From the NCBI GenBank assembly GCA_964393275.1, contig CAYMTA010000009.1:53544-117543 (forward strand): 64,000 nucleotides of DNA, given 5' to 3'. The position numbers and the translations under genes are program-made. Of this stretch, positions 33,440 through 48,764 are shown one piece after another. Within the stretch, counting starts at the first letter, position 1. Each line of letters starts with the position of its first letter. This stretch comes from an uncultured Geminicoccaceae bacterium. GTDB lineage: Bacteria; Pseudomonadota; Alphaproteobacteria; Geminicoccales; Geminicoccaceae. The notes under the pieces were generated by a model. It saw nothing but the letters and a program-made list of their open reading frames with translations. It was not told the origin of the DNA and did no database searches.

Positions 33440-34228
33440 CTAGCCTTTCGGTGCGCAGGCCGAAGTCCGTCCGCCGGGCTGCATTCGCGCCGCGCCGTCA
33501 CCGCTGCAAAAACGTTGCAGCGCTGCGATATTGGCGACCTCCACCTGGTTGCCCTGCGCGCGCACGCCGATCGACTTGAGACGCGACAGGCATCGGGAGA
33601 AGGTCTCGGGTTGCATGCCGAGGGCCCCGGCGATGAGCTGCTTGTCGAGCGGCAGCTCGAAGGCGGTTGCTGCCGTGTCCTCCGGGCAGAGCTGCAGGAG
33701 GAAGCGGCCGAGGCGCTCGGTCGACGAGCTCGACGTGCGCTGCTCGATCTGCTCGACCAGCCGGCGCAACTGGCGCGACATCGACGCCAGGATGTTGAGC
33801 GCCAGGGCCGGGTCGGACAAGAGCCGGCGGCGGAACGACTGGGCGGTGACGACCAGCAGCCGCGCGTCGGCGATGACCGTCGCCGTGACCGGGAAGTCGG
33901 CGCAGTCGAACATCGCCGCCTCGGCGAAGGATTCGCCGCGGTTGATCAGGCTGATGACGCTCTGGTGACCGTTGGCGCTCACCCGGTGCAGCATCACGCA
34001 ACCGTCGAGCACGACGTAGAAGCGCGAGGCGGCCTCACCTTGGTAGAAGAGCACGGTGCGGCGCGAGGCGGCGACGACGCTGGCCTCGCCGATGATCTCG
34101 GCCCGCCTCGCCGGCGCCAGATCGGCGAACATCGGCAGCCGGGCGAGGCGCGCCGCATCTGTCGGGCCGAGCTCGCGCGACGGTGGCGAGGCGCCCTGAC
34201 CCGCGGCTGGTCGACACGCCTGCGCCAT
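33440..34228 (-). CDS. Crp/Fnr-family transcriptional regulator (NnrR/Dnr-type candidate)
   Basis: cNMP-binding-like domain plus a C-terminal HTH (LPLDKQLIAGALGMQPETFSRCLSRLK). No N-terminal Cys cluster. ATG preceded by GGGGGGAGG. Flanked by denitrification genes. Confidence 0.85.
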   Translation of the reverse strand: MAQACRPAAGQGASPPSRELGPTDAARLARLPMFADLAPARRAEIIGEASVVAASRRTVLFYQGEAASRFYVVLDGCVMLHRVSANGHQSVISLINRGESFAEAAMFDCADFPVTATVIADARLLVVTAQSFRRRLLSDPALALNILASMSRQLRRLVEQIEQRTSSSSTERLGRFLLQLCPEDTAATAFELPLDKQLIAGALGMQPETFSRCLSRLKSIGVRAQGNQVEVANIAALQRFCSGDGAARMQPGGRTSACAPKG

Positions 34229-34306
34229 GACCTCCCCCCATGTGCCGACCGGTCGTGCCCAGGGGGCGGACAAGAACCGGCGGTCCGCCGATGCTTGCCC
34301 ACATCC

Positions 34307-34320
34307 TTGACCACGGTCAA
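34307..34320. promoter_or_regulatory. FNR/NNR-type box TTGACCACGGTCAA, core of a 26-bp palindrome (34301-34326)
   Basis: Read directly: ACATCCTTGAC-CACG-GTCAAGGATGT. About 85 bp from both divergent start codons. Confidence 0.75.
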
Positions 34321-34397
34321 GGATGTGCGCCCGCTTTGCCCGCTTACTCGGGCTTCGCCATCGAGGCCCGTTGCGGCCGGGCATCCGGGAGGGGCGC

Positions 34398-34580
34398 ATG
34401 GAAATCGTTCTCTTCACCGCCGTCGCCGCGCTGCTCTATCTCGCGGCCGACAGGCTCCTCGTCCTCATCGAGCGGCGGCGGGGCGGCCCCTTGGCGAACC
34501 GCTCGGTTGTCTTCTTCCTCCTGCTTCTCGGGCTGGCGCTGCCGGCCTTCGCGTTGATCCGGTCGTTGCTGGGCACTTGA
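34398..34580 (+). CDS. Hypothetical small 2-TM membrane protein
   Basis: Internal ATG after GGGAGG. MEIVLFTAVAALLYLAADRLLVLIERRR...VVFFLLLLGLALPAFALI. Confidence 0.45.
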   Translation: MEIVLFTAVAALLYLAADRLLVLIERRRGGPLANRSVVFFLLLLGLALPAFALIRSLLGT

Positions 34581-34652
34581 CCGGGTCGATGCGAACGACT
34601 GAGATAGCCGATAATCGTGTCGCGATCCGTCCGTGCATGAAAGGGAGAGATC

Positions 34653-35165
34653 ATGAAAACGCGTCAGTGGCGTGACAATTCGCTGCAATCGCCGAAGGGC
34701 GCTTCAAATCCGGTGCTGGCGCTGGCGCTCGTGGGCGGCCTCGCGGCCATGGCGCCGACCTCGCCGGCGCTTGCCGGCGAGGCCGTCGGCCCCCTGTTGC
34801 CGCCGAACGTGCGCGCCATGCTGCTCGAGGAGATGGCGGCGGTGCTCGGCGCCACCCAGATGATCCTCGACGCCCTGGTGCGCGGCGAGGACGCCACCGT
34901 GGCCGAGGAGGCACAGGCGATCCACGACAGCTTCATTCTCGAGCAGCAGATGACGGATGCGGATATGCAGGCCCTGCTGGCCGCCGCTCCGCCGGAATTT
35001 GTCGAGCTCGACGGTGCCTTCCACCAGCTGGCCGCCGACCTTGCCGAAGCCGCCCGCGCGGGCGAGCAGGCCCGCCAGCGCGGGCTGTTCGGGGAGATGG
35101 TCGAGGCCTGCGCCGTCTGCCACGCGCGCTTCGCGGCCAACCTCTTTCCGGGCTTCACCCAATGA
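34653..35165 (+). CDS. Class II c-type cytochrome (cytochrome c'-like)
   Basis: AGGGAGAG RBS and a signal peptide. Helical, Ala/Glu-rich body with a single CAVCH heme motif near the C-terminus. Confidence 0.6.
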   Translation: MKTRQWRDNSLQSPKGASNPVLALALVGGLAAMAPTSPALAGEAVGPLLPPNVRAMLLEEMAAVLGATQMILDALVRGEDATVAEEAQAIHDSFILEQQMTDADMQALLAAAPPEFVELDGAFHQLAADLAEAARAGEQARQRGLFGEMVEACAVCHARFAANLFPGFTQ

Positions 35166-35220
35166 CCTCGCCCGAGATGTGTCCGGGCCTCGGCATCACA
35201 TCGCGTGCGCTCGCCGCCAC

Positions 35221-35234
35221 TTGACTGCGGTCAA
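35221..35234. promoter_or_regulatory. FNR/NNR-type box TTGACTGCGGTCAA
   Basis: Perfect palindrome upstream of the heme-copper oxidase-like operon. Confidence 0.7.
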
Positions 35235-35386
35235 GGACAGCGCCGCCGGCGCGGCCCTAGCGTTGATCATCAGTCTATCCACGCACGTCGGCAGAGCAAC
35301 GCCTGCTGGCGGTCGTGACCGGAGAGGGGAGCTCGGTCTTGGCACACCAAGGGACGGAAGAGGATCAAGGGGGACGGCCGCACGTC

Positions 35387-35506
35387 ATGCAGCGGCTGCT
35401 CGACAACCCGTTCCTCCTGGTTTTCATCGGCGTCACCATGCCGACGGTTCTCTACCTGATCTGGGGGGTCATGGAGATCACCCAGATTCCCCTCTCTCCG
35501 TCCTAG
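35387..35506 (+). CDS. 39-aa single-TM peptide, ba3-oxidase subunit IIa-like by position and size
   Basis: MQRLLDNPFLLVFIGVTMPTVLYLIWGVMEITQIPLSPS, immediately upstream of the subunit II gene. Confidence 0.45.
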   Translation: MQRLLDNPFLLVFIGVTMPTVLYLIWGVMEITQIPLSPS

Positions 35507-35547
35507 CACGCCGTCCCGGCCCCCCTTCAAAGACCTAGGAGATCGCC

Positions 35548-36129
35548 ATGGCGCTCCTGCCGCCGAAGAACCGCCTCTGGTGGAACGAGCCGCTGCATCG
35601 CATGGAGATCGTCTGGATCGCCATCGCCTTTCTCTGGGGCGTCGCGATGTTCTGCACCATGATCTGGTGGCACATCTACGGCCATCAGAACCTCTCCAAC
35701 GAGTCCTACCGGATCCTGCCCGACGTCTATGCCGAGCGGGTGGACGCCATGATCGACGAATACGAGGTCGGCGAGGACGAGTTCGGCATGCCGATCGTCC
35801 GACCGCCGGTCGGCTCCGACGTCTATTTGCAGGCTCGCTTGTGGGACTGGTCGCCGATCCTCGAGCTGGTCGAGGGCGAGACCTACCGCCTGCACATCTC
35901 CTCGATCGACTGGCAGCACGGCTTCTCGCTGCAGCCGACCAACATCAACCTGCAGGTCCATCCCGGCTACGAGATGGTGGTGACGCTGACCCCCAACGCA
36001 TCGGGTGACTTCGGCATCGTCTGCAACGAATTCTGCGGCATCGGCCATCACCTGATGACCGGCCGGATCAAGGTCCTCGACCGAGAGGCGGCCAAGGCCG
36101 CCGGCATGCAACTGGCGGCGGGAGAGTAG
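35548..36129 (+). CDS. Heme-copper oxidase superfamily subunit II with CuA site (single TM, B-family-like)
   Basis: HGFSL...CNEFCGIGHHLM matches the CuA pattern H..C-x-E-x-C-G-x-x-H-x-x-M. One N-terminal TM helix. Confidence 0.85.
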   Translation: MALLPPKNRLWWNEPLHRMEIVWIAIAFLWGVAMFCTMIWWHIYGHQNLSNESYRILPDVYAERVDAMIDEYEVGEDEFGMPIVRPPVGSDVYLQARLWDWSPILELVEGETYRLHISSIDWQHGFSLQPTNINLQVHPGYEMVVTLTPNASGDFGIVCNEFCGIGHHLMTGRIKVLDREAAKAAGMQLAAGE

Positions 36130-36131
36130 TC

Positions 36132-37850
36132 ATGGCGAGCATTGCGATCCCGGGACGCCAGGTGGCGGAAGAGCTCTTTCGCACCTGCCCCGACACTGGC
36201 CTCAAGGTGCACGCCAAGGCCGAGACGCTGATCCGCGTCAACGTCCTGACCGCGGTCGCCTTTCTCGCCGTGGGCGGGCTTTTCGGCCTCATGGTGGCCC
36301 TCACCCGCTGGCCGGTGATCCACCTCCTGCCAGCCGAGTGGTTCTACCTGGTCCTGACCGCGCACGGTGCCGCCGTGCTGCTCTTCTGGATCATGTTCTT
36401 CGAGGTGGCGATCTTCTACTTCACCTCGGCCGTCGTTCTGAACTCCCGATTGGCGACGCCCATGATGGCCTGGGTCGCCTATTTCATGATGCTGATCGGC
36501 GCCATCATCGCCACCGTCGCGGTGCTGCAGGGCAACTCCACGGTGATGTTCACCTCCTACCCGCCCCTGATGGCGGCCCCGCACTTCTATCTCGGCCTGA
36601 TCCTCTTCGCGGTCGGCACGCTGATCACCTGCTTCATCTTCCTCGGCACGCTGGTCGTCGCCAAGGACGAGGGGACCTACGAGGGCTCGATCCCGCTCGC
36701 CGCCTTCGGCGGGCTCACCGGTGCGATCATCATGATCTTCACTCTGGCCTCGGGTGCCATCATCCTGGTCCCGACCTTCCTCTGGTCGCTCGGCATCATC
36801 GGCACCATCGATCCGCTGACCTACAAGCTCGTCTGGTGGGGCCTCGGCCATTCCTCGCAGCAGGTGAACGTCACCCTGCACGTGGTCGTCTGGTACACCA
36901 TCGCCGCCCTCCTCCTGGGGGCCCGGCCGCTCTCGGAGAAGGTCAGCCGGTTCGCCTTCCTGCTCTACATCTTCTTCCTGCAGCTCGCCTCGGCCCACCA
37001 CCTCCTGGTCGAGCCGGGCCTGAGCTCGTCCTGGAAGATCTTCAACACCAGCTACGCCATGTACCTGGCGGTCCTGGGCTCGATGATCCACGGCATGAGC
37101 GTGCCGGGCGCCGTCGAGGCGGCGCAGCGCCGGCTCGGCCACACCAAGGGCATCTTCGGCTGGCTCAGGGACGCGCCCTGGGGCAACCCGGCCTTCTCCG
37201 GCATGTTCCTCTCGCTCGTCATGTTCGGCTTCTTGGGCGGCATCAGCGGCGTCATCCTCGGCACCGAGCAGATTAACATCCTGATGCACAACACCCTCTA
37301 CGTGCCGGGTCACTTCCACGCCACCGTGGTCTGCGGCACCACGCTCGCCTTCATGGCCGTCACCTACCTCCTGATCCCGATCTTCTTCCAGCGTGACCTC
37401 GTCTTCCCCCGGATGGCGAAGTGGCAGCCTTATGTCTTCGGCGCCGGGGCCGCCGGCATCTCGCTCTTCATGATGGGCGCCGGCACGCTCGGCGTGGCCA
37501 GGCGGCATTGGGACATCACCTTCACGGACGCGCTCATCACCTTCGACTACCCGGCCACCGCCTTCCTCATGCTCGGCCTGAACGGCCTCTCGGCCCTGGT
37601 CGCGGCGACCGGCGGCGTGATGTACGTCCTCGTCGTCTTCGGCTCGGTTTTCTGGGGCAAGCGGCGGACCGCGGCGGATGCCTTGTCGAACCCCATCGCC
37701 CCGGGTGCCGAGGCCCTCAGGACCTACGGCAGCGAGGGAACGCTGAAGCTGCCGGGCACCCTCGTGCTGATCACGGTCTTCTTCATCGCCTTCGCCCTCT
37801 ACTACTTCATCAACTGGCGCTTCCTGGCGGGCATCTGGGGCATGAGCTGA
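36132..37850 (+). CDS. Heme-copper oxidase superfamily subunit I, B-family (ba3)-like, lacking the cross-link Tyr (NO-reductase-type candidate)
   Basis: Aligns by eye to Thermus ba3 CbaA (IDPL..WWGLGH.., SAHHLL, GIFGWLRDAPWGNPAF, YVPGHFHATV). All six His ligands are present, but GHPIVY is GHSSQQ. Confidence 0.8.
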   Translation: MASIAIPGRQVAEELFRTCPDTGLKVHAKAETLIRVNVLTAVAFLAVGGLFGLMVALTRWPVIHLLPAEWFYLVLTAHGAAVLLFWIMFFEVAIFYFTSAVVLNSRLATPMMAWVAYFMMLIGAIIATVAVLQGNSTVMFTSYPPLMAAPHFYLGLILFAVGTLITCFIFLGTLVVAKDEGTYEGSIPLAAFGGLTGAIIMIFTLASGAIILVPTFLWSLGIIGTIDPLTYKLVWWGLGHSSQQVNVTLHVVVWYTIAALLLGARPLSEKVSRFAFLLYIFFLQLASAHHLLVEPGLSSSWKIFNTSYAMYLAVLGSMIHGMSVPGAVEAAQRRLGHTKGIFGWLRDAPWGNPAFSGMFLSLVMFGFLGGISGVILGTEQINILMHNTLYVPGHFHATVVCGTTLAFMAVTYLLIPIFFQRDLVFPRMAKWQPYVFGAGAAGISLFMMGAGTLGVARRHWDITFTDALITFDYPATAFLMLGLNGLSALVAATGGVMYVLVVFGSVFWGKRRTAADALSNPIAPGAEALRTYGSEGTLKLPGTLVLITVFFIAFALYYFINWRFLAGIWGMS

Positions 37851-37856
37851 GCCGAC

Positions 37857-38732
37857 ATGCGTCCGACCCAGCCACTCGTCCAACACATCGTCTCGGTCTT
37901 CAAGCTCCGGATCGCCGTCGTCATCGCCTTGAGCGCCCTGGCGGGCGTGGCGGTGACGCCCGGAGCACCTCTCTCGCCGGCCCAGATCACAGTGCTGACC
38001 TTGGCGGTGCTGCTCTCCTCGGGTGCCGCGGGCGCCTTCAACCAGCTCTTCGAGCGCGATCTCGACGCCCGCATGATGCGCACCCGACGACGGCCATTCG
38101 CCAGCGGCGAATGGCGGGGCGGCCCCGCCTGGTGGGCGCTCATCGTCGCCATCCTGGCGCTCGGCGTGAGCATGGCGGCCGTTGTCCTCAACGTCACCAC
38201 CGCCGTGCTCCTCTTCCTCGGCGCCTTCACCTACGGCGTCGTCTACACGGTCTGGCTCAAGCGCCGCACGGTCTGGAACATCGTCATCGGCGGCCTCGCC
38301 GGCAGCTTCGCGGTCCTCGCCGGTGCCGCGGCCGTCGATCCGGCCATGAGCGCGGCACCCCTCGTCCTCGCCGTCGTGCTCTTCCTCTGGACGCCACCAC
38401 ATTTCTGGTCCCTGGCGCTCATGGCCAAGGACGACTACGCCGCCAACGGCGTGCCGATGCTGCCGGCGGTCAAGGGCGACGCCTTCACCGCCTGGGCGAT
38501 CCTCCTCCATGCCGTGGCCCTCGCGGTGCTCGCGGTGGTGCCCTTCTTCCTCGGCATGGGCTGGATCTACCTCCTGGCCGCGGTCGTCGGCGGCGCGTAT
38601 TTCGTCAAGACCAGCGTCGCCCTGGTGCTGCGGCCGAGCCGCGCCGCCGCCTTCGCCAACTTCAAGAGCTCGCTCCTGCAGCTTTCGCTCCTCCTGTTCG
38701 GCGCCATGGGCGATGCGGCGCTCCTGGGCTAG
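37857..38732 (+). CDS. ctaB: Protoheme IX farnesyltransferase (heme O synthase)
   Basis: UbiA-family: NQLFERDLDARMMRTRRRP..., 8-9 TM segments. Confidence 0.88.
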   Translation: MRPTQPLVQHIVSVFKLRIAVVIALSALAGVAVTPGAPLSPAQITVLTLAVLLSSGAAGAFNQLFERDLDARMMRTRRRPFASGEWRGGPAWWALIVAILALGVSMAAVVLNVTTAVLLFLGAFTYGVVYTVWLKRRTVWNIVIGGLAGSFAVLAGAAAVDPAMSAAPLVLAVVLFLWTPPHFWSLALMAKDDYAANGVPMLPAVKGDAFTAWAILLHAVALAVLAVVPFFLGMGWIYLLAAVVGGAYFVKTSVALVLRPSRAAAFANFKSSLLQLSLLLFGAMGDAALLG

Positions 38733-39549
38733 GGGGCGTCTGCTCGGCGCCCTCCTCTGCTTCTTGCCTGCGTTCCCGGCCGTCGCCGAGGATGCGCCCA
38801 ATCCCTTCGACGAGCGCGCCGCCCTTGCCTACAGCCAGGCCGCCATTGGCCGCGCCGTCTCCGACCACACCTTCCTGGACAGCGCCCGCCAGCCGGTGAA
38901 TCTCGCCGATTATCGCGGCAAGCCGCTGATCTTGAACCTTGTCTTCACCGCCTGCTCGACGACCTGCCCGATCATCGTCCAGTCGCTGCATCGCGGCGTG
39001 CGGATCGCCAACGGCGCCCTCGGTCCCGACGCCTTCTCCGTCGTCACCATCGGCTTCGACACCGATCGCGACACGCCCGAGCAGATGCGCGCCTTTGCCG
39101 CCGATCAGGGCGTGCGGATGCCGAACTGGACCTTCCTCAGCGCCGACAAGGCCACCATCGACGCCCTTTCGGCCGAGGTCGGCTTCATCTACTTCCCCTC
39201 GCCGCGCGGCTTCGACCACCTGACGACCACCACCATCCTCGACGCCGATGGCACGGTCTTCCGCCACGTCTATGGCGACCTCTTCGAGCCGCCAGCGGTG
39301 GTCGAGCCCTTGAAGGACCTCGTCTGGAGCCGCTTCAGCCCGATCACGGACCTCGAGGGCGTGTGGAATCGGGTCCGGCTGCTCTGCACCCTTTACGATC
39401 CGAAGAACGACCGCTACCGCTTCGATTACGGAATTTTCTTCGGCATCTTCGCCGGCATCCTTTGCCTCGGCGGCATCGCCGTTGTCCTGGTGCGCGCCTG
39501 GCTCACCACGCGGCGGCGACCGGACGTGGCCTTGCCGGCGCGGCGGTAG
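38713..39549 (+). CDS. SCO1/SenC-related thioredoxin-fold protein, atypical (CSTTC motif, C-terminal TM anchor)
   Basis: Internal ATG overlapping the ctaB end. Signal peptide, NLVFTACSTTCP, DTPEQMRAFA, FDHLTTTTILD. Has an extra C-terminal segment with a TM helix (FFGIFAGILCLGGIAVVLV). Confidence 0.65.
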   Translation: MRRSWARGRLLGALLCFLPAFPAVAEDAPNPFDERAALAYSQAAIGRAVSDHTFLDSARQPVNLADYRGKPLILNLVFTACSTTCPIIVQSLHRGVRIANGALGPDAFSVVTIGFDTDRDTPEQMRAFAADQGVRMPNWTFLSADKATIDALSAEVGFIYFPSPRGFDHLTTTTILDADGTVFRHVYGDLFEPPAVVEPLKDLVWSRFSPITDLEGVWNRVRLLCTLYDPKNDRYRFDYGIFFGIFAGILCLGGIAVVLVRAWLTTRRRPDVALPARR

Positions 39550-39560
39550 CGGGAATCGGC

Positions 39561-41150
39561 ATGGATCTTCTTCGTCGCACCTTGCGCGCGGGCTTCGCCC
39601 GCATCGAGGCGCTGCTCGACCGCGTGTTCCCGCCGGCCTGGCAGCCTCTCTACCACCTCGGCGCATTGTCCTTCTTCTGCCTCTGGATCGTCTTCGTCAG
39701 CGGCCTCTACGTCTACGCCTTCTTCGACACCGGCACGATCGACGCCTTCCAGTCGGTCGAGAGCATGAGCACCCGCTACTGGTGGCACGCCGGCGTCATG
39801 CGCAGCCTGCACCGCTACGCCTCGGCCGGCATGGTGCTCTTCATGTTCCTGCACCTGCTGCGCGAGTTCTCCCTCGACCGCTACCGGGGGTCCCGCTGGT
39901 TCACCTGGGTCACCGGCGTCATCATCATCTGGTTCGTCTACATCTCCGGCATCACCGGCTACTGGCTGGTCTGGGACCAGCTCGCCCAGTTCGTCGCGAT
40001 CCGGACATCCGAGCTGATCGACGCCATCGGCATTTTCGGCGAGCCCATCGCCCGCAACTTCCTGACGCCCGGCAGTCTCGACGACCGCTTCTTCTCGCTG
40101 ATGCTGTTCCTGCACATCGCCATCCCGCTGATCCTCCTCATGGTCATGTGGATCCATCTGCAGCGGGTGACCCGGCCCGAGATCAACCCGGCGCGCGGCC
40201 TCGCCATTCTCATGCTGGTCGCTTTCGTCGCCCTGGCGCTGGTCATGCCCGCGACCAGCCAGGCTCCGGCCGACCTCGGGCGCGTGCTGGGGAGGATCGG
40301 CCTCGACTGGTACTATCTCGGCACCTACCCCCTGGCCGACGTCATCGGTGCCCGGGGCCTCCTGGGTCTGCTCGGCGTCATCACGATCATCCTCGTCGCC
40401 CTGCCGCTCATGCCGCCCATGCGGCGCCCGCCGGCGGCCACCGTCAATCTCGAGTTCTGCAACGGCTGCGAGCGCTGCGTCCACGACTGCCCCTACGAAG
40501 CCGTGGTCCTGGTGCCACGCACCGATAACCTGCCCTTTCAGCACGAGGCCCGGGTCAACCCCTCGCTCTGCGTGAGCTGCGGCATCTGCACCGGCGCCTG
40601 CCCGACCGCGACACCGTTCCGCCAGCGCGGCCGGATGATCGCCGGCATCGAGCTGCCGCATCTGGCGCTCAAGGATCTGCGCGCCCTCACCGACAAGGCG
40701 GCCCAGGGCCTGACCGGCGACCGGCGGGTCATCGCCATCGGCTGCGATCACGGCGTCGACCTGAAAGGACTGGCCGAGCAGGGCGTCGGCATCGTCCGCC
40801 TCCCCTGCACCGGCATGCTGCCGCCGCCCTTCATCGACTACATCCTCAGCCGCGATCTCGCCGACGGCGTGGTGCTGACCGGCTGCGCCGAGGAAGCCTG
40901 CCAGAACCGCAACGGCATCGCCTGGACCGAGGCCCGGATCGAGGGCGAGCGCGACCCCCATCTGCGCAAGCGCGTGCCGCGTGAGCGAATCCTGCGCTTC
41001 TGGCCGGGCAGGACGGGTGCCACGGCCCTCGCTCGGGCAATCGAGGCCTTCCGCGCCACCCTGCCGGACCAGCCGAGCGCCAAGGCGGCGCCGCGCAAGG
41101 CCGCACCGGCGGCCGAGCCGGTCCAGACAGCGGCCTCCGGCAATGAGTAG
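39561..41150 (+). CDS. Fusion protein: di-heme cytochrome b (6 TM) + 2x[4Fe-4S] ferredoxin + MvhD/FlpD-like domain
   Basis: HRYASAGMVLFMFLH and FLHIAIPLILLMVMWIH (two H-x13-H pairs). CNGCERCVHDCP and CVSCGICTGACP. RLPCTGMLPPPFIDYILSRDLADGVVLTGCAEEACQNRNG resembles the MvhD motif. Confidence 0.75.
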   Translation: MDLLRRTLRAGFARIEALLDRVFPPAWQPLYHLGALSFFCLWIVFVSGLYVYAFFDTGTIDAFQSVESMSTRYWWHAGVMRSLHRYASAGMVLFMFLHLLREFSLDRYRGSRWFTWVTGVIIIWFVYISGITGYWLVWDQLAQFVAIRTSELIDAIGIFGEPIARNFLTPGSLDDRFFSLMLFLHIAIPLILLMVMWIHLQRVTRPEINPARGLAILMLVAFVALALVMPATSQAPADLGRVLGRIGLDWYYLGTYPLADVIGARGLLGLLGVITIILVALPLMPPMRRPPAATVNLEFCNGCERCVHDCPYEAVVLVPRTDNLPFQHEARVNPSLCVSCGICTGACPTATPFRQRGRMIAGIELPHLALKDLRALTDKAAQGLTGDRRVIAIGCDHGVDLKGLAEQGVGIVRLPCTGMLPPPFIDYILSRDLADGVVLTGCAEEACQNRNGIAWTEARIEGERDPHLRKRVPRERILRFWPGRTGATALARAIEAFRATLPDQPSAKAAPRKAAPAAEPVQTAASGNE

Positions 41151-41643
41151 GGGGCTGAAATGGCTCGGCCAGGGGCTCGTCCTGGCGCTGATCATGCTGG
41201 CGATCGGCTACCTCGCCAATCGGCCGGCCTACACCAACTTTCCCGAGGACCAGGCAATGATCCGCCTCAGCTTCAGCCATGGCGGCGGCCGGCCCGATTG
41301 CCGTCGGCGCACGCCGGAGGAGCTGGCGGCCCTGCCTCCCAACATGCGAGCGCCCATGGACTGCCCGCGCGGCCGCCTGCCGGTCACGGTCGAGCTCGAT
41401 CTCGACGGCTCCCCGCTCTATCATGCCCTTTTGCCGCCTGGCGGGCTCCAGGGTGACGGGCCGTCCCGCGTGCACCGGGGCTTCGCCGTATCACCGGGCA
41501 CGCACACGATCACCGCCCGACTGCGCGACAGTGACCGGACGGAGGGCTTCGACTACACCAAGGAGGTCACCCTCGACCTCGCCCCCCGGCAGAACCTGGT
41601 GATCGATTTCAAGACCGACGCCGGCGGCTTCATCGTTCATTGA
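41143..41643 (+). CDS. Hypothetical single-TM protein
   Basis: The ATG overlaps the upstream stop (ATGAGTAG). N-terminal TM helix WLGQGLVLALIMLAIGYL. No family recognised. Confidence 0.5.
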   Translation: MSRGLKWLGQGLVLALIMLAIGYLANRPAYTNFPEDQAMIRLSFSHGGGRPDCRRRTPEELAALPPNMRAPMDCPRGRLPVTVELDLDGSPLYHALLPPGGLQGDGPSRVHRGFAVSPGTHTITARLRDSDRTEGFDYTKEVTLDLAPRQNLVIDFKTDAGGFIVH

Positions 41644-41670
41644 GCAGGTATCGAGGAAGGAGCGACGCCG

Positions 41671-42324
41671 ATGCGCCAGCATACCGGATCACCCAGGCTG
41701 CTGACCGGCGGCGGGCGCGGCCTCCTGCTGCCGCTTCTCGTCGTCGTCTTCATCGGCGCCACCGGCTGGCTCGCCTCGACGATCCTGCCCTGGCGCGACT
41801 TCTTCTCCGAAGCTCCGGCCGTGCCGGTGATCGAGACCGAAAGCCTCCTCGCCCTCGTCGACCATCATGGCCAGAAGCTTGCCCCGGCCGCGCTCCAGAA
41901 CCCCGTCAACCTGGTTTTTTTCGGCTATACCCACTGTCCCGACGTCTGCCCCCTCGAGCTCGCCACCATGGCGGCGGCCCTCGACCGGCTGGGTGACGCG
42001 GCTGGCCGGGTCGGCGCCTTCTTCGTCAGCGTCGATCCGGAGCGCGACACGCCGGAACAGCTCGCCAGCTATGTCGCCCTCTTTCACCCGGGGATCACCG
42101 GGCTCACCGGCACGCCGGAGGAGGTCGCCGCCACGGCTGGCGCCTTTCATGCCTATTATGCTAGGGTCGATCAGGAGGACGGTTCCTACACGATGGACCA
42201 CTTCGCCCGCACGATGGTCCTCGACCGGGACGGGCATCTGATCGCAGCCATCCCCTTCGACCAGTCGCCCGAGACCCTGGAGAAGGCCATCCGGCCGCTT
42301 CTCGAAAGCGAGGAGGCTGGCTGA
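41671..42324 (+). CDS. SCO1/SenC copper chaperone
   Basis: FGYTHCPDVCP, DPERDTPEQL, DHFARTMVLD. Confidence 0.88.
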   Translation: MRQHTGSPRLLTGGGRGLLLPLLVVVFIGATGWLASTILPWRDFFSEAPAVPVIETESLLALVDHHGQKLAPAALQNPVNLVFFGYTHCPDVCPLELATMAAALDRLGDAAGRVGAFFVSVDPERDTPEQLASYVALFHPGITGLTGTPEEVAATAGAFHAYYARVDQEDGSYTMDHFARTMVLDRDGHLIAAIPFDQSPETLEKAIRPLLESEEAG

Positions 42325-42343
42325 ACGCGCAAAGGAGACGACC

Positions 42344-42787
42344 ATGCCGCTCTTGCCCTGGTCCGAGAGGTTCAAGCTCGGCATTCCCTCGGTCGATTTC
42401 GAGCATAAGGAGCTGGTCGACCTGATCAACGAGCTCTACGACAGCCTCGGCCACACGCCCACGAAGGACGCGGTCATGGCTTTCCTCGAGGAGATCAACG
42501 CCAAGATCCACGCGCATTTCGCGCTCGAGGAGAAGGTCATGCGCGGCATGCGCTATGACGAGCTCGATGACCACAAGGACGAGCACGAGGATCTCCTGGA
42601 CGGCATCCGCGATATCATGGAGAGGACCGAGGCCGGCGGCTTCGTCGACCTCGAGGCCGAGCTCGGGCCGCGGCTCAAGGCCTGGTTCGGCAATCATTTC
42701 GCTACCAAGGATGCCCGCCTGCATCACTTCATGGAGGAGCAGGGCATCGACGAGGAAAGCTTCGCCCGCCAGCATCCCGATGCCTGA
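42344..42787 (+). CDS. Bacteriohemerythrin-like protein
   Basis: W-x3-F-x-LGIPSVDFEHKELV..., HFALEE, H-x3-H/E pattern. Confidence 0.85.
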   Translation: MPLLPWSERFKLGIPSVDFEHKELVDLINELYDSLGHTPTKDAVMAFLEEINAKIHAHFALEEKVMRGMRYDELDDHKDEHEDLLDGIRDIMERTEAGGFVDLEAELGPRLKAWFGNHFATKDARLHHFMEEQGIDEESFARQHPDA

Positions 42788-42792
42788 GCGCC

Positions 42793-42806
42793 TTGACTTG
42801 GATCAA
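42793..42806. promoter_or_regulatory. FNR/NNR-type box TTGACTTGGATCAA
   Basis: Read directly. Lies 6 nt after the hemerythrin stop and about 70 bp upstream of the TrpD-like gene. Confidence 0.6.
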
Positions 42807-42871
42807 GGCCGAAGCGGTCATGCCGTGGCATAGTTATCCTGAAGGCCGAGTAGATCAGGGAGCCATCGACC

Positions 42872-43903
42872 ATGAGCCTTCATACGGCCACGCATGAGCG
42901 CGGCCCGGTCCTGGCCGATGCCCGGGAGCACCCGTTCGCCGCCACCCTTCGCGTCGTCGCCAAGGGCGAGAAGCTCGGCCGCAGCCTGACCATGGAGGAG
43001 GCGCACGAGGCAATGCGCCTCGTCCTCGAGGGTCGGGTCGAGCAGGTCCAGCTCGGCGCCTTCCTCGCCGTGCTGCGCTATCGCAAGGAGACCGGGGCCG
43101 AGCTTGCCGGCTTCGCGCTGGCCGCCCGCGACTGCCTGACCTGGGATGCCCTGCCGGCCGCGGCGCTCGACTGGCCGTCCTATGCCGACCGGCACCGCCA
43201 GCTTCCGTATTTTGTCCTCTCGGCCCTGCTGGTGGCCGGCGCCGGCGTTCGCGTCCTGATGCACGGTGTCGAGGGCGAGGGACCGGCCGGCACGCGCGCC
43301 ATGCTGCGCGCCCTGGACGTGCCCATGGCCACGAGCTCGGACGACGCCGAGCGGCACATGGCGGAACGCGCGTTCGCCTACCTGCCGCTCGAAGCCATCT
43401 GCCCGGCGCTCGACCGGCTGCTCGAGCTCCGCCCGCTCCTGGGATTGCGCTCGCCGGCCAACACCTACGCCCGCGAGTTGAACCCGGCCGCCGCACCCTG
43501 CCAGATCCAGGGCGTCTTCCACCCCAACTACGCCGACCTGCATGCCCATGCCGCGAGCCGTCTCGGCCAGCCCCGGGCCGCCATCTTCAAGGGCGGTGGC
43601 GGCGAAGGTCAGATCAACCCGCTGAAGCCCATCGCCCTGACCCTGGTCGAGGATGGCCAGGTGCGCCGCGAGACCTGGCCCGCCCTCCTCGAAGCGGACG
43701 ACGCCGGCTGGCGGGACGAGCCCCTGGAGCTGTCGCGCGTCCTCGAGCTCTGGCGTGGGACGCGCACCGCCCCCGGACCCGAGGCCGCGATCATCGGCAC
43801 GACCGCCATAGCCCTGCACCTCACCGGCAGCGCTCCCACACCCGAGAGTGCCCTGGCCGCTGCCAGCGATCTTTGGCAGAGCCGCGACCGCTCGCGCTAC
43901 TAG
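42872..43903 (+). CDS. Glycosyltransferase family 3 / anthranilate phosphoribosyltransferase-like (TrpD2-type) protein
   Basis: N-terminal helical bundle pattern LTMEEAHEAMRLVLEGRVEQVQLGAFLAVLRYRKETGAELAGF. Confidence 0.65.
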   Translation: MSLHTATHERGPVLADAREHPFAATLRVVAKGEKLGRSLTMEEAHEAMRLVLEGRVEQVQLGAFLAVLRYRKETGAELAGFALAARDCLTWDALPAAALDWPSYADRHRQLPYFVLSALLVAGAGVRVLMHGVEGEGPAGTRAMLRALDVPMATSSDDAERHMAERAFAYLPLEAICPALDRLLELRPLLGLRSPANTYARELNPAAAPCQIQGVFHPNYADLHAHAASRLGQPRAAIFKGGGGEGQINPLKPIALTLVEDGQVRRETWPALLEADDAGWRDEPLELSRVLELWRGTRTAPGPEAAIIGTTAIALHLTGSAPTPESALAAASDLWQSRDRSRY

Positions 43904-44631
43904 AGCGTGGCCGCCTCGACGATCAGCGGCAGCAGCGCCGGATCGGGGCCGATCGGGCCAAAATAGACACCCGCACGGCCCGTCTCGGCCAGGAGCCTCG
44001 CCACATCGCTCGCCCCGTGCTGGCCGGCGTCGGTGAGGAACCCCACGGCAGCGATGAAGGGCGCCTCGAACCGTGCGGCGGCTTCGGCCACGGCGGGCGC
44101 CTCGTCGAGAAAGGCCACGCCCACCTCGGCGAAGAGCCCCAGATCGAGAATCGCCGCGGCATGGCGTTTTGCCGTCAAGGCCGAATCCGGATGCCGCGTG
44201 GTGCCGTGGCCGACCAGCAGCAGTGCCGTCTCGGCCGGCCCCTGGCCGTGGGCGGCGAGGCCCTTGAGCGCTCGTGCCACCAGGAGATCGGCCAGCCCCT
44301 CATGGGCACCCAAGGCAGGTGCCAACCGGGCGCCGGGCCGAGACGCCCTGAGCCGCTCCTCCAGCACCCGCAGCGTGTAGCCTTCGGCCATCATGAAGGG
44401 CAGCACGGTCAAGGGACCGGGCGGCATGCCGGCGAGCACCGTCTCGAGCCGCGGCGTGCCGAAGAGCGCGCAGGCCTCGACCTTGGCGAAAAGCCCCTGC
44501 CGCCGCAGCACGCCCGCATGCCGGGCCGCCGCCCCGGCCACGCCACGCGCCCCGTGGGCGCAGAGCACCAGCGCCGGCCCGATTGCCGGGGCCCGCTCAG
44601 TCGCCGGCAGTGGCGAGACGATTGTGGACAT
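43900..44631 (-). CDS. CbiX/SirB-type sirohydrochlorin chelatase
   Basis: Two-lobed, about 240 aa. LVLCAHGARG and LLLVGHGTTRH motifs. Terminal gene of the nir/heme d1 string. Confidence 0.7.
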   Translation of the reverse strand: MSTIVSPLPATERAPAIGPALVLCAHGARGVAGAAARHAGVLRRQGLFAKVEACALFGTPRLETVLAGMPPGPLTVLPFMMAEGYTLRVLEERLRASRPGARLAPALGAHEGLADLLVARALKGLAAHGQGPAETALLLVGHGTTRHPDSALTAKRHAAAILDLGLFAEVGVAFLDEAPAVAEAAARFEAPFIAAVGFLTDAGQHGASDVARLLAETGRAGVYFGPIGPDPALLPLIVEAATL

Positions 44632-46135
44632 TGTACTTGCCTACCGGGTTGCGCATCGGGATGCGCTTGACCTCTTCCAGCGTATGGGCGTCGTAGACCA
44701 CCACCGCACCATCGTCCGCCCACACACTGACCAGCGCGTAGCGGCCGTCCTTGGTGAACTCGACATGGCCGGCGGTGGTGCCGGGACTCGGCCGGATGGT
44801 CCTCACGAGCTCGAGCGTGCGCGTGTCCAGCACCTGCACCGCATCGGCGTCGGGGCCGAAGAAGACATCGACCCAGGCATAGGGTGTCGCCGGATGGGCG
44901 CGGAGAAAAAAGCCGGGACCAAGGGTCTCGATCTCCTTGACCACCTCGAGCTTCTCGACGTCGATGACGCTGACCGCCGCGTCGCGCAGATGCGGTGTTG
45001 CCATGACCTGCCGTCCCTGCCACTCGAAAGCCGCGGCCGAGCCCAGATGCGGCATCCCCGGCAGTGGCAGCTCGGCGATCTCGCGGCCGACATCGAGCTG
45101 GATGGCCACCACATGGTCGCCGCTGCGGGCCGACCCCAGAAGCACGCGATAGTCGGGGGTGAAGAAGAAATCGTCGACCGGCTCGTCCAGGAGAATGCGG
45201 CGAACCGGGAAGGGGTCGGAGGAATCCACGACCTCCTCCATCCCGCTCTCGTTGCTGTGGGCGAGCCCGCTGACCTTGACGGCCCTCGGGCCGATCGGGA
45301 TCTCCCAGATCTCGGCCACGTCCTTCAAGGCGACGATGAAGCTCTGGCGCGGCGGGGCGGCGTAGACAGCACTCACCCTGGAGCCGGTGCCCCGGATGTC
45401 GGCGACCGGGATCACGGCGAGCGGCCGGAGGTCCTCCGCATCGAGCACGACGAGGCTGTTGGGCAGGTAGTTGCCGACGAGGACGAAGCGGCCATCGTGC
45501 GAAAGGGCCAGATTGCGCGTGTTGATCCCCGCCCTGACCTTGGCGAGCTTCTGCAGCCCCCACATGTCCACCTTCTCGATCCAGCCGTCGCGCGAGGCGA
45601 GGTAGACGAAGCGGCCCTCCGGGCTGAACTTGGGGCCGCCATGCAGCGCGAAGGCGGTGGGCAGGCGACGCAAGGGCTCGAAGCTGTCGCCATCCAGGAT
45701 GGTGATGTGGTGATCGCCGGTCTCGACCACGACGAAGAGGTTCATCGGATCGCCGTCGAAAACCGGCGCCTCGGCCGGAACGGCGCCGGTCATCTCGTGC
45801 GACGCCGAGATCTCCGCCATGCCCCAGGTCGGCACTGTCGCAGGGGGCGTGTAGACGAGGGCCACCAGGGCCTCGATCTCCGCCTCGTCCAGCACGTGCT
45901 CGAAGGCTGGCATCTGCGTCTGCCCCCGGCCGCTTCGAATGACCTCCGCCGCCGCCTTGGGCTTCAGCCGGCCGAGATTGTCCGGCAGGAGGGCCGGCCC
46001 CGTGCCGCCGAGCCGTGCCTCGCCATGGCATTCCGCGCAATTCTCCGCATAGAGCGCGTCGCCGTCCGGCGCGGCCTGGGCCATGCCCGCCCAGCCGAGG
46101 GCCAGAGCCAGGAGCGCTGCCCTATTCCGCGGCAT
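44597..46135 (-). CDS. nirN: NirN (cytochrome c + d1-type beta-propeller; dihydro-heme d1 dehydrogenase)
   Basis: Internal ATG followed by a signal peptide. CAECH heme c motif followed by a cd1-type propeller. Positioned after nirJ. Confidence 0.85.
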   Translation of the reverse strand: MPRNRAALLALALGWAGMAQAAPDGDALYAENCAECHGEARLGGTGPALLPDNLGRLKPKAAAEVIRSGRGQTQMPAFEHVLDEAEIEALVALVYTPPATVPTWGMAEISASHEMTGAVPAEAPVFDGDPMNLFVVVETGDHHITILDGDSFEPLRRLPTAFALHGGPKFSPEGRFVYLASRDGWIEKVDMWGLQKLAKVRAGINTRNLALSHDGRFVLVGNYLPNSLVVLDAEDLRPLAVIPVADIRGTGSRVSAVYAAPPRQSFIVALKDVAEIWEIPIGPRAVKVSGLAHSNESGMEEVVDSSDPFPVRRILLDEPVDDFFFTPDYRVLLGSARSGDHVVAIQLDVGREIAELPLPGMPHLGSAAAFEWQGRQVMATPHLRDAAVSVIDVEKLEVVKEIETLGPGFFLRAHPATPYAWVDVFFGPDADAVQVLDTRTLELVRTIRPSPGTTAGHVEFTKDGRYALVSVWADDGAVVVYDAHTLEEVKRIPMRNPVGKYNVHNRLATAGD

Positions 46136-47309
46136 GGGCGGGCTCACGGCTCGCGGCTCGACCGGCTGCGAGCCCGATCTCGGCGTCGGTGAGATAGCAG
46201 CCGGGATCGGCCGCCCAGGGATCGTCCAGCGTGCGGGCCGCCCGGACCCGGGTGTTGCCGTTGCAGATCTGAAGGTAGTGGCAGGCACCGCAGCGCCCGG
46301 TGACCGGCCGGGGCCGCTCCTTGAGCCCGGCGAAGACGGGATCGGTGGACGTGTCGGTCCAGATCTCGCTGAACGGCCGCTCCCTGACATTGCCGAGCTT
46401 GTGGTGCCACCAGTAGGTGTCCGGATGGACGAAGCCTCGATTGTCGATATTGGCGACATTCACGCCGGACGCATTGCCGCCCCAGCGCTCGAGCAGGGCC
46501 TGGATATGGGCGGCCTTGGCCGGGAAGTGGCGGCGCACCCAGTGCAGAAGGAAGACGCCGTCGGCGTCGTTGTTGCCGGTGACGAACTCGGTGTTCCTGC
46601 CCTCGTTCAGGTGGCGAAGGCAGGTCTCGAAGATCAGCTCGAGAGCATCCCGGGTCATGACGTCCTGCGCGTCCTCGCCTCTGACCTTGAATCCGCGCCC
46701 GCCGTAATTCAGGTGCGAGAGGTAGAACTTGTCGATGCCGCGCTGGTCGATGAGATCGAGGATGGTCGAGAGCTCGGCCGCGTTGTCGCGGGTCAGCGTG
46801 AAGCGGAGCCCGACCTTGATGCCGATCGCCTGGCAGTGCTCGACGCCACGCATCGCGGCCTTGAAGGCGCCGGGCTCGCCCCGGAGATGGTCATGGGTCG
46901 GCTCGGTGCCGTCGAGGCTGATGCCGACATAGTTGTAATCGAGCTCGGCGATCCGGCCGATATTCGTCTCGTCGATCTGCGTGCCGTTGGTCGACAGCGC
47001 CACGTAGAAGCCCAGCCGCTTGGCCTCGGCCGAGATCTCGAAGATGTCCGGGCGGAGCAAAGGCTCGCCGCCGGAGAGAATCAGCGCCGGCACGCGAAAG
47101 CGGCGCAGATCCTCCATCACCGTCACGACCTCCTCGGTCGAGAGCTCACCCGAATAGGCGACATTGGCCGAGCCCGAGTAGCAGAAGCGGCAACGCAGGT
47201 TGCAGCGGCGCGTCAGGTTCCAGATGACCACGGGCCCAGGCGGTTGGCGCGCCGGGCCGATGCGGCTCGGGTTGACGACCTCGCGCATGAAATTGGTGAT
47301 CCGGAACAT
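46122..47309 (-). CDS. nirJ: Radical SAM heme d1 biosynthesis protein NirJ
   Basis: NLTRRCNLRCRFC (CxxxCxxC) with a SPASM-like C-terminus. GGGAGA RBS. Confidence 0.9.
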   Translation of the reverse strand: MFRITNFMREVVNPSRIGPARQPPGPVVIWNLTRRCNLRCRFCYSGSANVAYSGELSTEEVVTVMEDLRRFRVPALILSGGEPLLRPDIFEISAEAKRLGFYVALSTNGTQIDETNIGRIAELDYNYVGISLDGTEPTHDHLRGEPGAFKAAMRGVEHCQAIGIKVGLRFTLTRDNAAELSTILDLIDQRGIDKFYLSHLNYGGRGFKVRGEDAQDVMTRDALELIFETCLRHLNEGRNTEFVTGNNDADGVFLLHWVRRHFPAKAAHIQALLERWGGNASGVNVANIDNRGFVHPDTYWWHHKLGNVRERPFSEIWTDTSTDPVFAGLKERPRPVTGRCGACHYLQICNGNTRVRAARTLDDPWAADPGCYLTDAEIGLAAGRAASREPAHAAE

Positions 47310-47335
47310 GGGCGTCTCCCGTTGCTTCTCGACTG

Positions 47336-47836
47336 CTACCGGGCGAGCCGGAGCCCGGTCTTCTTGAGGATGCGGCGGCTGTAGAGGATCGTCCCGCCGT
47401 GACAGGCGGAGCCCAGGCGGCTCCTGATCTGCCGTACCTTGGCCTCGACCGCGGGGCGTGTCTTGGCGTGGACCATGGCGAAGAGATTGTAGGGCCAAAG
47501 CGGCGGATGGCGAGGCCGGCGGTAGCAGTGGGTGACGAACTCGAAAGCGCCGATGATCGGCCCGAGCTCGGCCACCATGTCGTCGTCGACATCGAAGACC
47601 GCCATGCCGTTGGCCCGATAGCCCAGCGCATAGTGGTTCGGCACGGCGCCGATGCGACGGATGGCACCGCGCGCCAGCATGGCCTCGAGCGTGGCGATGA
47701 CCGTTGCCTCGTCGGTGCTGAGCTCGGCGGCGACCGCGGCATAAGGTTCGGCGACTAGCGGCAGCCCGGTGCCGATCGCCTTCACGAGCCGGCGCTCGAG
47801 CTCGTCAGCGGGGCCGGTCCCTCCCCCGGCCTTCAT
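47336..47836 (-). CDS. nirH: Siroheme decarboxylase subunit NirH
   Basis: AsnC-like NirDLGH family (WPYNLFAMVH). ATGA overlap with nirG. Confidence 0.85.
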   Translation of the reverse strand: MKAGGGTGPADELERRLVKAIGTGLPLVAEPYAAVAAELSTDEATVIATLEAMLARGAIRRIGAVPNHYALGYRANGMAVFDVDDDMVAELGPIIGAFEFVTHCYRRPRHPPLWPYNLFAMVHAKTRPAVEAKVRQIRSRLGSACHGGTILYSRRILKKTGLRLAR

Positions 47837-48276
47837 GGCTGGAGCCTCAGGCCGATGAAATATTCCTCGAGCTTCGGCATCGAAAGAACCTCGATGCCGG
47901 TCTCCGCCGCGATCTCGTCCAGCACCGCCAGGGCCCGCTCCGGCGTCTCGGCCGCCACCACGAACCACATGTTCAAGAGATGCTCGCGCTCGTAGTTGTG
48001 GGCCACCTCGACATGGGCGTTGACCAGCTCGGTCACCCGGTCGAACGCGTCCTCCGGCACTGCCATGGCCGCCAGGATGTAGGTGCCGCCCATGGCCTCG
48101 ACATTGAAGAGGGGACCGAAGCGGCTGAGCACGCCGGTCTCCAGGAGCCGCCCCAGGCGACGGATCAGCTCGCCCTCGTCGAGCCCCAGTGCCCGGGCGG
48201 CCTCTTCGTAGGGACGCGGGCTCAGGGGAAAACCGCCCTGCAGCCCGGCCACAATGCGTCGGTCCGTGGCATCCAT
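47833..48276 (-). CDS. nirG: Siroheme decarboxylase subunit NirG
   Basis: NirDLGH family (VAHNYEREHLLNMWFVV). Confidence 0.85.
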   Translation of the reverse strand: MDATDRRIVAGLQGGFPLSPRPYEEAARALGLDEGELIRRLGRLLETGVLSRFGPLFNVEAMGGTYILAAMAVPEDAFDRVTELVNAHVEVAHNYEREHLLNMWFVVAAETPERALAVLDEIAAETGIEVLSMPKLEEYFIGLRLQP

Positions 48277-48764
48277 CAGGCGGCCTCCGCACGATAGCGC
48301 GCACCGCGCTGCTTGAAGCGTCGTGTGCTGAACAGCACGGCATGCGGCAGATCGGCGAGCCCGTGCTCCGTCAGAAGCTGGTCGATGCGAGCGAGCACCG
48401 CGCTTCGCTCGCGGCCGTGCACCATGGCGAAGAGATTGTAGGGCCAGTCCGGCAGGCGGCGCGGCCGGCGGTAGCAGAGGGTCACGTCCGCCGCCCGGGT
48501 CAGCCGCCCGCCGACCGCGTCGACCACCTCGTCCGGCACGTCGATCACCGTCATCGCATTGGCCCGGTAGCCTATCTCGTGATGCCGCACGACGAGGCCG
48601 AGCCGCTTGACCACGCCGGCTGCCTGCAGGGCGGCGAGCCGCTCGATCACCTCGCCCTCGCCGAGGCCGGCGCGCTCGCCGAGGGCGGCATAGGGATGCG
48701 CCACGAGCGGCAGCCCGCCCTCGAGCGCCTCGAGCAGGCGATGATCTTCTGGCGTCAGCTCCAT
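48276..48764 (-). CDS. nirL: Siroheme decarboxylase subunit NirL
   Basis: NirDLGH family (WPYNLFAMVH). Confidence 0.85.
   Translation of the reverse strand: MELTPEDHRLLEALEGGLPLVAHPYAALGERAGLGEGEVIERLAALQAAGVVKRLGLVVRHHEIGYRANAMTVIDVPDEVVDAVGGRLTRAADVTLCYRRPRRLPDWPYNLFAMVHGRERSAVLARIDQLLTEHGLADLPHAVLFSTRRFKQRGARYRAEAA

Follow-up and report, generated by a model that had tools for sequence, protein, structure and literature searches.

Does the denitrification locus considered here encode an oxidase, as its database name says, or a nitric oxide (NO) reductase (NOR)? The locus lies in a stretch of 64,000 nucleotides (the window) from an uncultured Geminicoccaceae bacterium (contig CAYMTA010000009.1), and databases name its heme-copper enzyme a cytochrome c oxidase. 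The original prediction, made from the letters of the sequence, placed a small peptide, subunit II and subunit I at 35387-37850, described a ba3-like enzyme of B-family descent without the cross-link tyrosine, and proposed a non-canonical NOR of unassigned subfamily. The three open reading frames (ORFs) are as described, and all sequence-level tests supported the candidate. Its residues and its place in the tree identify the enzyme as an eNOR, and not as an sNOR, bNOR, nNOR, gNOR or cNOR/qNOR; the locus is a regular addition to the described eNOR family rather than a new kind of enzyme. On this evidence the region very probably encodes an eNOR-family respiratory NO reductase that detoxifies or respires the NO formed by the neighboring cd1 nitrite reductase. 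The window ORFs were scanned with Pfam and NCBIfam profiles, the 64 kb being the part of the genome in view. The three structural genes are as follows:

35387-35506, + strand: small-peptide gene, 39 aa, from the ORF list; predicted single-helix membrane peptide
35548-36129, + strand: eNOR subunit II, 193 aa; one transmembrane helix and, in the periplasm, a cupredoxin domain whose CuA site is complete
36132-37850, + strand: eNOR subunit I, 572 aa; Pfam COX1; starts 2 bp past the subunit II stop

Active site and family of the putative NO reductase

Subunit I matches the Pfam family COX1 (E 5e-62). When all solved structures were searched, the closest was subunit I of Thermus thermophilus ba3 (E ~1e-43), with the B-type oxidase of Aquifex second and A-type oxidases far weaker. 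Residues were mapped with a HMMER (phmmer) alignment and two MAFFT alignments anchored on a ba3 sequence that carried the expected residue at every landmark position. In the alignment to ba3, all six canonical histidine ligands of a heme-copper subunit I are present in the query:

H78 (TAHG), ba3 H72: low-spin heme ligand
H240 (GLGH), ba3 H233: non-heme metal ligand
H289/H290 (SAHH), ba3 H282/H283: non-heme metal ligands
H394/H396 (GHFH), ba3 H384/H386: H394 for the high-spin heme, H396 for the low-spin heme

B-family oxidases are marked by GHP[ILV]VY, which ends in the helix VI cross-link tyrosine. The query does not carry this mark: its GHSSQQ aligns to ba3 GHPIVY with Gln244 at Tyr237 and Gln243 at Val236. 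GH[SA]SQQ is found in 128/128 close homologues of the query subunit I, and the cross-link tyrosine is missing from all ~240 members examined of the wider GHxxQQ clade described below. Nor does the alignment place a tyrosine at the alternative helix VII site of C-family oxidases, where the query has Leu283/Gln284. Within the eNOR clade, unlike in its Tyr-containing sisters, position 284 is always Asn or Gln and position 308 (helix VIII) always Tyr, which makes the two candidate eNOR-specific active-site or channel residues. Position 284 lies five residues ahead of the His-His pair, close to the C-family tyrosine placement.

For conservation, one genome per GTDB species was scanned, and at least 556 of these genomes contain a relative. 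The term "related loci" refers here to the best 80, all from Alpha- or Gammaproteobacteria and 66-97% identical to the query. Presence of each gene was scored with tblastn, using the proteins of the window as queries; the counts are lower bounds owing to the shortness of many contigs. Subunit II, with a homologue in 79/80 loci, aligns to ba3 subunit II (E 7e-14), and its CuA ligands, H124, C159, C163, H167 and M170 together with E161 (backbone carbonyl), do not vary across 79-80 related loci. The six histidines, the exchange of Tyr for Gln and the complete CuA site, all read by eye in the original prediction, were thus recovered by alignment.

Most K-channel residues of ba3 are kept or conservatively swapped in the query:

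ba3 Y248, query Y255: invariant in the family
ba3 S309, query S317: invariant in the family
ba3 T312, query H320: invariant in the family
ba3 S261, query S268: mostly polar in the family
ba3 T315, query S323: Ser, Thr or Ala in the family
ba3 II-Glu15, query II-Glu20 (E20), at the channel entrance: invariant in 79/79 loci

By the published account eNOR keeps the B-type K-channel, and the residue pattern of the query agrees. Such a polar chain suggests that protons would be taken up from the cytoplasm and that NO reduction would be electrogenic.

The 39-aa peptide ahead of subunit II, also part of the original prediction, is a real and strongly conserved gene. It has a homologue in 78/80 related loci at 59-97% identity (consensus MQRLLDNPFLLLFLGVTVPTVLYLIWGVMEIAQIP), and a recognizable version lies upstream of the Thermus NAR1 homologue (LLDNPWLLLL...LYLIWGWLDITRIP). 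One transmembrane helix long, it shares the place of subunit IIa in the Thermus ba3 cbaDBA operon. No Pfam family matched it, and no sequence evidence of homology to ba3 subunit IIa was found. It is likely a third subunit.

Published criteria connect the residue at the tyrosine site with the family: Tyr in O2 reductases, Glu in cNOR/qNOR, Asn in sNOR and Gln in eNOR (PMC8756737, section 2.7.1, Table A4). In gNOR an active-site His is changed to Asp and subunit II is without CuA ligands, nNOR has cNOR-like active-site residues and a low-spin heme ligated by His/Met, and bNOR is said to have the sNOR active site (PMC11214002). Gln244 of the query is the published eNOR diagnostic. A homologue search over 1.84 billion 50%-identity representatives gave 1343 matches to subunit I. 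The full-length matches were combined with ba3, the Thermus plasmid and Defluviimonas plasmid homologues, and sequences from Chloroflexi, Armatimonadota and Burkholderiales in a neighbor-joining (NJ) tree with 300 bootstraps and bipartition counts, from which the eNOR of Rhodothermus marinus and curated reference sets were left out. The GHxxQQ sequences, including the query, formed one bipartition in 300/300 bootstraps (100%), so that the phylogenetic placement called for by the original prediction sets the query apart from the B-family oxidases. Members of this clade include the Thermus NAR1 homologue and sequences from haloarchaea (Natrarchaeobius), Chloroflexi (Anaerolineae/Caldilinea) and Armatimonadota; it was from haloarchaea and Chloroflexi that eNOR was originally reported.

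The clade is tied to the literature by WP_015717644.1 of T. scotoductus (P0323), which is treated as an eNOR in PMC8756737. It is 84% identical to the Thermus NAR1 clade member and 52% identical to the query across 292 aa. Among the 118 matches to the Thermus homologue, 113 carry the GHxxQQ pattern, and in 21 Lys replaces the second His of GHFH, a low-spin heme ligand; some eNORs have a His/Lys low-spin heme (PMC11214002). It is the Gln at the tyrosine site, together with the 100% GHxxQQ clade that contains literature eNOR, that leads to the subfamily eNOR.

The nearest neighbors of the GHxxQQ clade are archaeal sequences that keep the tyrosine as GHxxQY (support for Q + QY 90%), and the classical GHP[LIV]VY B-type oxidases fall further out in the NJ tree. 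The eNOR family has been placed close to the "K family" of O2 reductases (bioRxiv 10.1101/592808), to which the Tyr-keeping GHxxQY group probably belongs. A GHxxQY group paraphyletic around the Q clade fits the view that NORs arose from oxidases (PMC11214002).

Family resources were of little help at this level: NCBIfam has no eNOR-specific, subunit II or peptide model, and all its subunit I matches were far under cutoff. A protein search that started from the Thermus homologue gave matches in Thermus, Armatimonadota, Chloroflexi and Burkholderiales, with none in Rhodothermus, and no eNOR structure turned up in the literature searched. The name eNOR is said to go back to Hemp and Gennis in 2008. 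The expectation that few enzymes of this type had been characterized needs correction: an eNOR has been purified from R. marinus DSM 4252 and reduces NO, but not O2 with several donors (PMC11214002, Murali et al. 2024, PNAS), and the family, present in hundreds of genomes, is not obscure.

The operon, its probable regulation and its surroundings

Downstream of subunit I, the same strand carries six further genes, for which homologue counts in the related loci are included:

37857-38732, + strand: heme o synthase (CtaB/CyoE), TIGR01473 E 3e-76, over its cutoff; 6 bp past subunit I; 72/80 loci
38713-39549, + strand: SCO1/SenC-like protein with a C-terminal membrane anchor and a CSTTCP motif, PF02630 E 5e-12; 76/80 loci
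39561-41150, + strand: cytochrome b-FeS fusion gene, Pfam Cytochrome_B 1e-22, Fer4, FlpD 6e-9; 67/80 loci
41143-41643, + strand: 166-aa protein with an N-terminal membrane anchor; ATGA, its start overlapping the stop of the cytochrome b-FeS gene; 67/80 loci, median identity 49%
41671-42324, + strand: second SCO1/SenC copper chaperone, PF02630 E 8e-45; 27 bp past 41643; 22/80 loci only
42344-42787, + strand: hemerythrin-domain protein, last gene of the putative operon, PF01814 E 1.5e-10; 19 bp past the second SCO1; 64/80 loci

Up to 41643 the genes are separated by gaps of 2-41 bp or overlap. Promoter and terminator predictions over 34200-44000 did not exceed shuffle expectation. The operon gene order is kept in most of the 80 related loci; the succession subunit II, subunit I, heme o synthase, sco, called "very common" in eNOR operons in a study of Ferrigenium straubiae (bioRxiv 10.64898/2026.01.22.701106), is kept in 72-79 of them. 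The closest relative among the matches listed is an uncultured Geminicoccaceae metagenome-assembled genome (MAG; L003), and Bradyrhizobium liaoningense SZCCT0420 is also among the best 80. The SCO1/SenC-like gene at 38713-39549 appears as a 278-aa gene call on two other contigs, and its product is likely a copper chaperone for CuA.

The fusion gene at 39561-41150 joins a cytochrome b N-terminal domain and two more helices to two CxxCxxCxxxCP [4Fe-4S] motifs and an MvhD/FlpD-like domain, the Fe-S part being cytoplasmic by predicted topology. No curated family covers it, and the Prokaryotic Genome Annotation Pipeline (PGAP) labels it only as a "cytochrome b N-terminal domain-containing protein". 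In the F. straubiae eNOR operon, cytochrome b/Fe-S genes were called "rather unusual" (bioRxiv 10.64898/2026.01.22.701106); unlike that description, the fusion is the rule in proteobacterial eNOR loci (67/80). The adjoining 166-aa protein, translationally coupled to the fusion gene by the ATGA overlap, has no Pfam match and may correspond to the "eNOR scaffold protein of unknown function" of the same preprint. The hemerythrin gene is also found in the Defluviimonas plasmid operon, annotated as "hemerythrin family protein"; conceivable roles of its product are the binding of NO or O2 or the handling of iron destined for the non-heme metal site. A bolder idea, which we consider rather unlikely, is that the proteobacterial eNOR forms the core of a larger conserved respiratory module with the peptide, the cytochrome b-FeS protein, the 166-aa protein and the hemerythrin, in which NO reduction would be wired to the quinol pool or a cytoplasmic partner and would conserve energy; on this idea the eNOR might even be the sole NOR of these nirS denitrifiers.

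Regulatory sites and denitrification genes flank the operon on both sides:

33440-34150, - strand: Crp/Fnr-family regulator, start uncertain (the ORF extends to 34417); homologue inside 10 kb in 36/80 loci
34307-34320: TTGA-N6-TCAA box between the Crp/Fnr gene and the genes diverging from it
34653-35165, + strand: cytochrome c'-like gene, PF01322 E 3e-6, C-terminal CAVCH
35221-35234: FNR/NNR/Dnr-type box TTGACTGCGGTCAA, preceding the first eNOR operon gene by ~150 bp
42793-42806: TTGA-N6-TCAA box upstream of the glycosyltransferase-family-3 gene
44597-53385, - strand: cd1 nitrite reductase cluster with nirS, nirE, nirF, nirD/L-type genes, nirJ, nirN and a CbiX-like gene
44597-46459, - strand: nirN, within the nir cluster
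51598-53385, - strand: nirS, within the nir cluster; inside 10 kb in 24/80 loci
53458-53471: TTGA-N6-TCAA box between nirS and the divergent nirI/nosR-like gene, the latter found in 24/80 loci

The window contains four TTGA-N6-TCAA sites where 0.25 would be expected by chance, and all four lie in promoter regions. The NNR-type box that had been predicted for the operon is the one at 35221-35234; in 55/74 related loci, or 63/74 with one mismatch allowed, an exact box precedes the small-peptide gene by 110-250 bp. With its E-x2-SR recognition motif (PETFSRCL) and without the Fnr Cys cluster, the Crp/Fnr regulator appears to resemble the NO-responsive regulators of the NNR/Dnr type. Past the nir cluster lie nirI/nosR-like and ApbE genes.

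The setting between a cytochrome c' gene and the nirS cluster, as originally described, is correct in position. The cytochrome c' gene does not stand as a conserved part of the system: the segment 34582-35214, situated between two FNR-type boxes, is missing from L003, the closest relative, and no homologue of the gene was found in the 80 related loci. We therefore rejected it as an eNOR component and regard it as a lineage-specific insertion, which looks like a recent gain of an NO-binding cytochrome beside the eNOR promoter. Between the eNOR operon and the nir cluster, the glycosyltransferase-family-3 gene (anthranilate phosphoribosyltransferase-like, 42872-43903) has its own box, and its homologues occur only in the 3 closest of the 80 related loci.

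The reported absence of norCB from the window was borne out. Pfam profiles were run on the sizeable coding-like ORFs (selected by GC3/GC2), and in 1-6000 ORFs of at least 150 aa were inspected by eye; no norC, norB or second COX1-family gene, and no COX15/CtaA (heme a synthase), was found among the window ORFs scanned (64 kb).

Proposed function and competing explanations

In the mechanism that we envisage, a periplasmic donor (cytochrome c or a cupredoxin) would reduce the binuclear CuA of subunit II, from which electrons would pass through the low-spin heme (His78/His396) to the binuclear site, formed by a high-spin heme on His394 and a non-heme metal on His240, His289 and His290. There, two NO would be reduced to N2O and water. 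Because Gln244 replaces the cross-linked tyrosine, the source of the fourth electron for O2 reduction, the enzyme should not act as an oxidase. Protons would reach the site from the cytoplasm via II-Glu20, Ser323, Tyr255, His320, Ser317 and Ser268. The heme o synthase and SCO proteins, presumably co-transcribed, would supply prenylated heme and copper, and the NNR/Dnr-type regulator, acting on the TTGA-N6-TCAA boxes, would turn on the operon jointly with nirS. The gene structure, ligands, family placement, synteny and conserved boxes are direct observations, whereas the reduction of NO, the identity of the metal and the hemes, the proton route and the regulation are our inferences from them.

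Several points weigh against this proposal. The query is only 38-53% identical to eNORs of other phyla, and the R. marinus and Magnetospirillum enzymes stand outside the comparison; for the query and its close (>60% identical) relatives, function is predicted from sequence by transfer from one characterized enzyme, the R. marinus eNOR. The turnover of that enzyme is low, at 0.68 NO per s (PMC11214002). Characterized eNORs carry heme a-type (heme As) cofactors and many eNOR operons have CtaA, whereas the query operon has none, nor do the other window ORFs scanned; the gene may lie elsewhere in the genome, as in Ferrigenium (bioRxiv 10.64898/2026.01.22.701106). A cNOR or qNOR elsewhere in the genome could leave the eNOR a secondary role. 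It is also formally conceivable that the invariant Tyr308 serves as a substitute tyrosine; no such substitute was found in eNOR structural models and sequences (PMC11214002).

Three other explanations were weighed against an eNOR-family NO reductase. The database name would be right if the enzyme were a low-oxygen terminal oxidase of the B/K lineage, with a modified O2 mechanism and FNR control owing to oxygen scarcity. The ba3 oxidases are the closest solved structures, the nearest sisters (GHxxQY) retain the tyrosine and are presumably oxidases, and FNR-type boxes are generally known to drive high-affinity oxidases in many bacteria. We nevertheless give this explanation very little credence: the cross-link tyrosine is missing in the whole clade examined, with none at Leu283/Gln284 to stand in, and the box of the operon is matched by a TTGA-N6-TCAA box preceding nirS. 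The R. marinus eNOR showed no O2 reduction (PMC11214002), and the Magnetospirillum magnetotacticum eNOR is described as without cytochrome c oxidase activity in a reference cited in PMC11214002. More plausible, though still highly unlikely, is a micro-oxic NO detoxifier, a sensor-linked sink or another nitrogen-oxide reaction, with a cNOR/qNOR elsewhere carrying the respiratory flux. Several NOR families coexist in many organisms (PMC11214002), 64 kb of the genome are in view, nirS adjoins in just 24/80 related loci, and the R. marinus enzyme is slow. The operon also encodes a hemerythrin, a class often tied to NO and iron stress by general knowledge of RIC/NorA-type proteins. Against such a minor role, the window has a full nir cluster and no norCB, conservation along the K-channel points to a respiratory enzyme that conserves energy, and R. 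marinus and Ferrigenium appear to depend on eNOR alone (PMC11214002; bioRxiv 10.64898/2026.01.22.701106).

The remaining explanation, another Tyr-less B-derived NOR (sNOR, bNOR, nNOR or gNOR), is one to which we attach scarcely any weight. All these families are Tyr-less and of B-type descent (PMC11214002), and the SCO/SenC genes downstream of the structural genes recall norSY-senC of ammonia oxidizers. The sNOR reading, prompted by those genes, was ruled out by a Gln rather than an Asn and by the 100% clustering with eNOR-labelled sequences; the same published Asn and the same clustering set sNOR and bNOR apart in a tree without an sNOR or bNOR reference sequence. All three metal-site histidines and a complete CuA separate the query from gNOR, and the His/His low-spin ligands H78/H396 with Gln at the tyrosine site separate it from nNOR. 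The cNOR and qNOR enzymes have Glu ligands and a C-family-related NorB, with NorC (a cytochrome c subunit) as partner or with an N-terminal fusion; the best structural relatives of the query are ba3 and not NorB, and its partner is a CuA cupredoxin.

If the enzyme is the eNOR that it appears to be, the nirS denitrifiers with an eNOR gain a Geminicoccaceae-like member of the Alphaproteobacteria, and among the best 80 relatives proteobacterial eNOR operons carry a conserved FNR/NNR box, the small peptide and accessory genes. Since eNOR is labelled a cytochrome oxidase, genome surveys would count such nirS organisms as NOR-less and misjudge their N2O-producing potential. If it is true that eNOR draws cytoplasmic protons, denitrification would conserve more energy than in the textbook cNOR pathway. 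Knowledge of the eNOR family itself is unchanged; the remaining interest lies in the systematic mis-annotation and in the conserved, unexplained accessory genes.

Known relatives and further observations

The query resembles the eNOR family, characterized in R. marinus, in its six-His, B-derived subunit I, in Gln for Tyr, in a CuA subunit II and in K-channel-like residues. Association with nir genes and the presence of heme o synthase and sco in the operon are further family traits, and its low-spin heme is His/His, unlike the His/Lys eNOR variant. In M. magnetotacticum the gene order is reportedly mcaII-mcaI-hosA (subunit II, subunit I, heme o synthase). The enzyme of that organism shares with the query an alphaproteobacterial host and conserved His ligands; known as a "cytochrome a1-like hemoprotein" and purified earlier, with its function never determined, it has been identified as an eNOR (PMC11214002). 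No Magnetospirillum locus is among the best 80 of at least 556 genome matches (all at least 66% identical).

The Thermus eNORs (WP_015717644.1 and the homologue on the NAR1 megaplasmid NZ_LR027520.1) share with the query the GHxxQQ motif, the CuA subunit II and the upstream peptide, at 44-52% identity. They differ in Lys for the second His of GHFH, and downstream of the NAR1 eNOR there is neither a heme o synthase or SCO gene nor a cytochrome b-FeS or hemerythrin gene. On the denitrification megaplasmid of T. thermophilus NAR1 (plasmid 4, L084, NZ_LR027520.1), the eNOR at 8325-10686 has GHGAQQ and a 41-aa upstream peptide. Beside it lie nirS, nirJ and a nirK-like gene of the multicopper type, and an Rrf2 regulator follows. 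Enzymes of the NAR1 type are annotated as cbb3-type or b(o/a)3-type oxidases on at least 10 Thermus plasmids.

T. thermophilus ba3 (PDB 1EHK, 3S8F) has the same layout of peptide, CuA subunit II and subunit I, the six His and part of the K-channel residues (Y248, S261, S309). It differs in being only ~25% identical and in having the His233-Tyr237 cross-link and reducing O2; its T312 is His and its Y244 is Val in the query, which also has a Glu (E91) in helix II. The nearest outgroup, the GHxxQY relatives from Asgard and Thermoproteota MAGs (P0138, P0139, P0144, P0157), is 33-43% identical to the query and shares Gln243, Glu91, His320 and Ser317 with it. In contrast, these relatives keep the cross-link tyrosine and are without the eNOR-specific Asn/Gln284 and Tyr308.

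A distinct heme-copper group (P0175, P0193, P0231, P0272; 100% bootstrap), one member of which is from a Dehalococcoidia MAG, is sister to eNOR + QY. Tyr replaces both the metal-site His282 (PPTFLYHLF) and His384, the proximal ligand of the high-spin heme (VP[GA]Y[FLV]H), and helix VI has FHxxHY. The group matched none of the families described in the eNOR and heme-copper oxidase (HCO) literature cited here.

Unrelated to the eNOR, the left end of the window (1-5400) has a G+C content of 0.62-0.64 compared with ~0.68. Four ORFs there (255-833, 862-1356, 4240-4743 and 4802-5314) encode small, secreted-looking proteins with a common N-terminal motif (…LD.VTAG…), and are adjoined by a tetratricopeptide repeat (TPR)/GT41 glycosyltransferase (1371-3581) and a C39 peptidase-domain protein (5705-6367).

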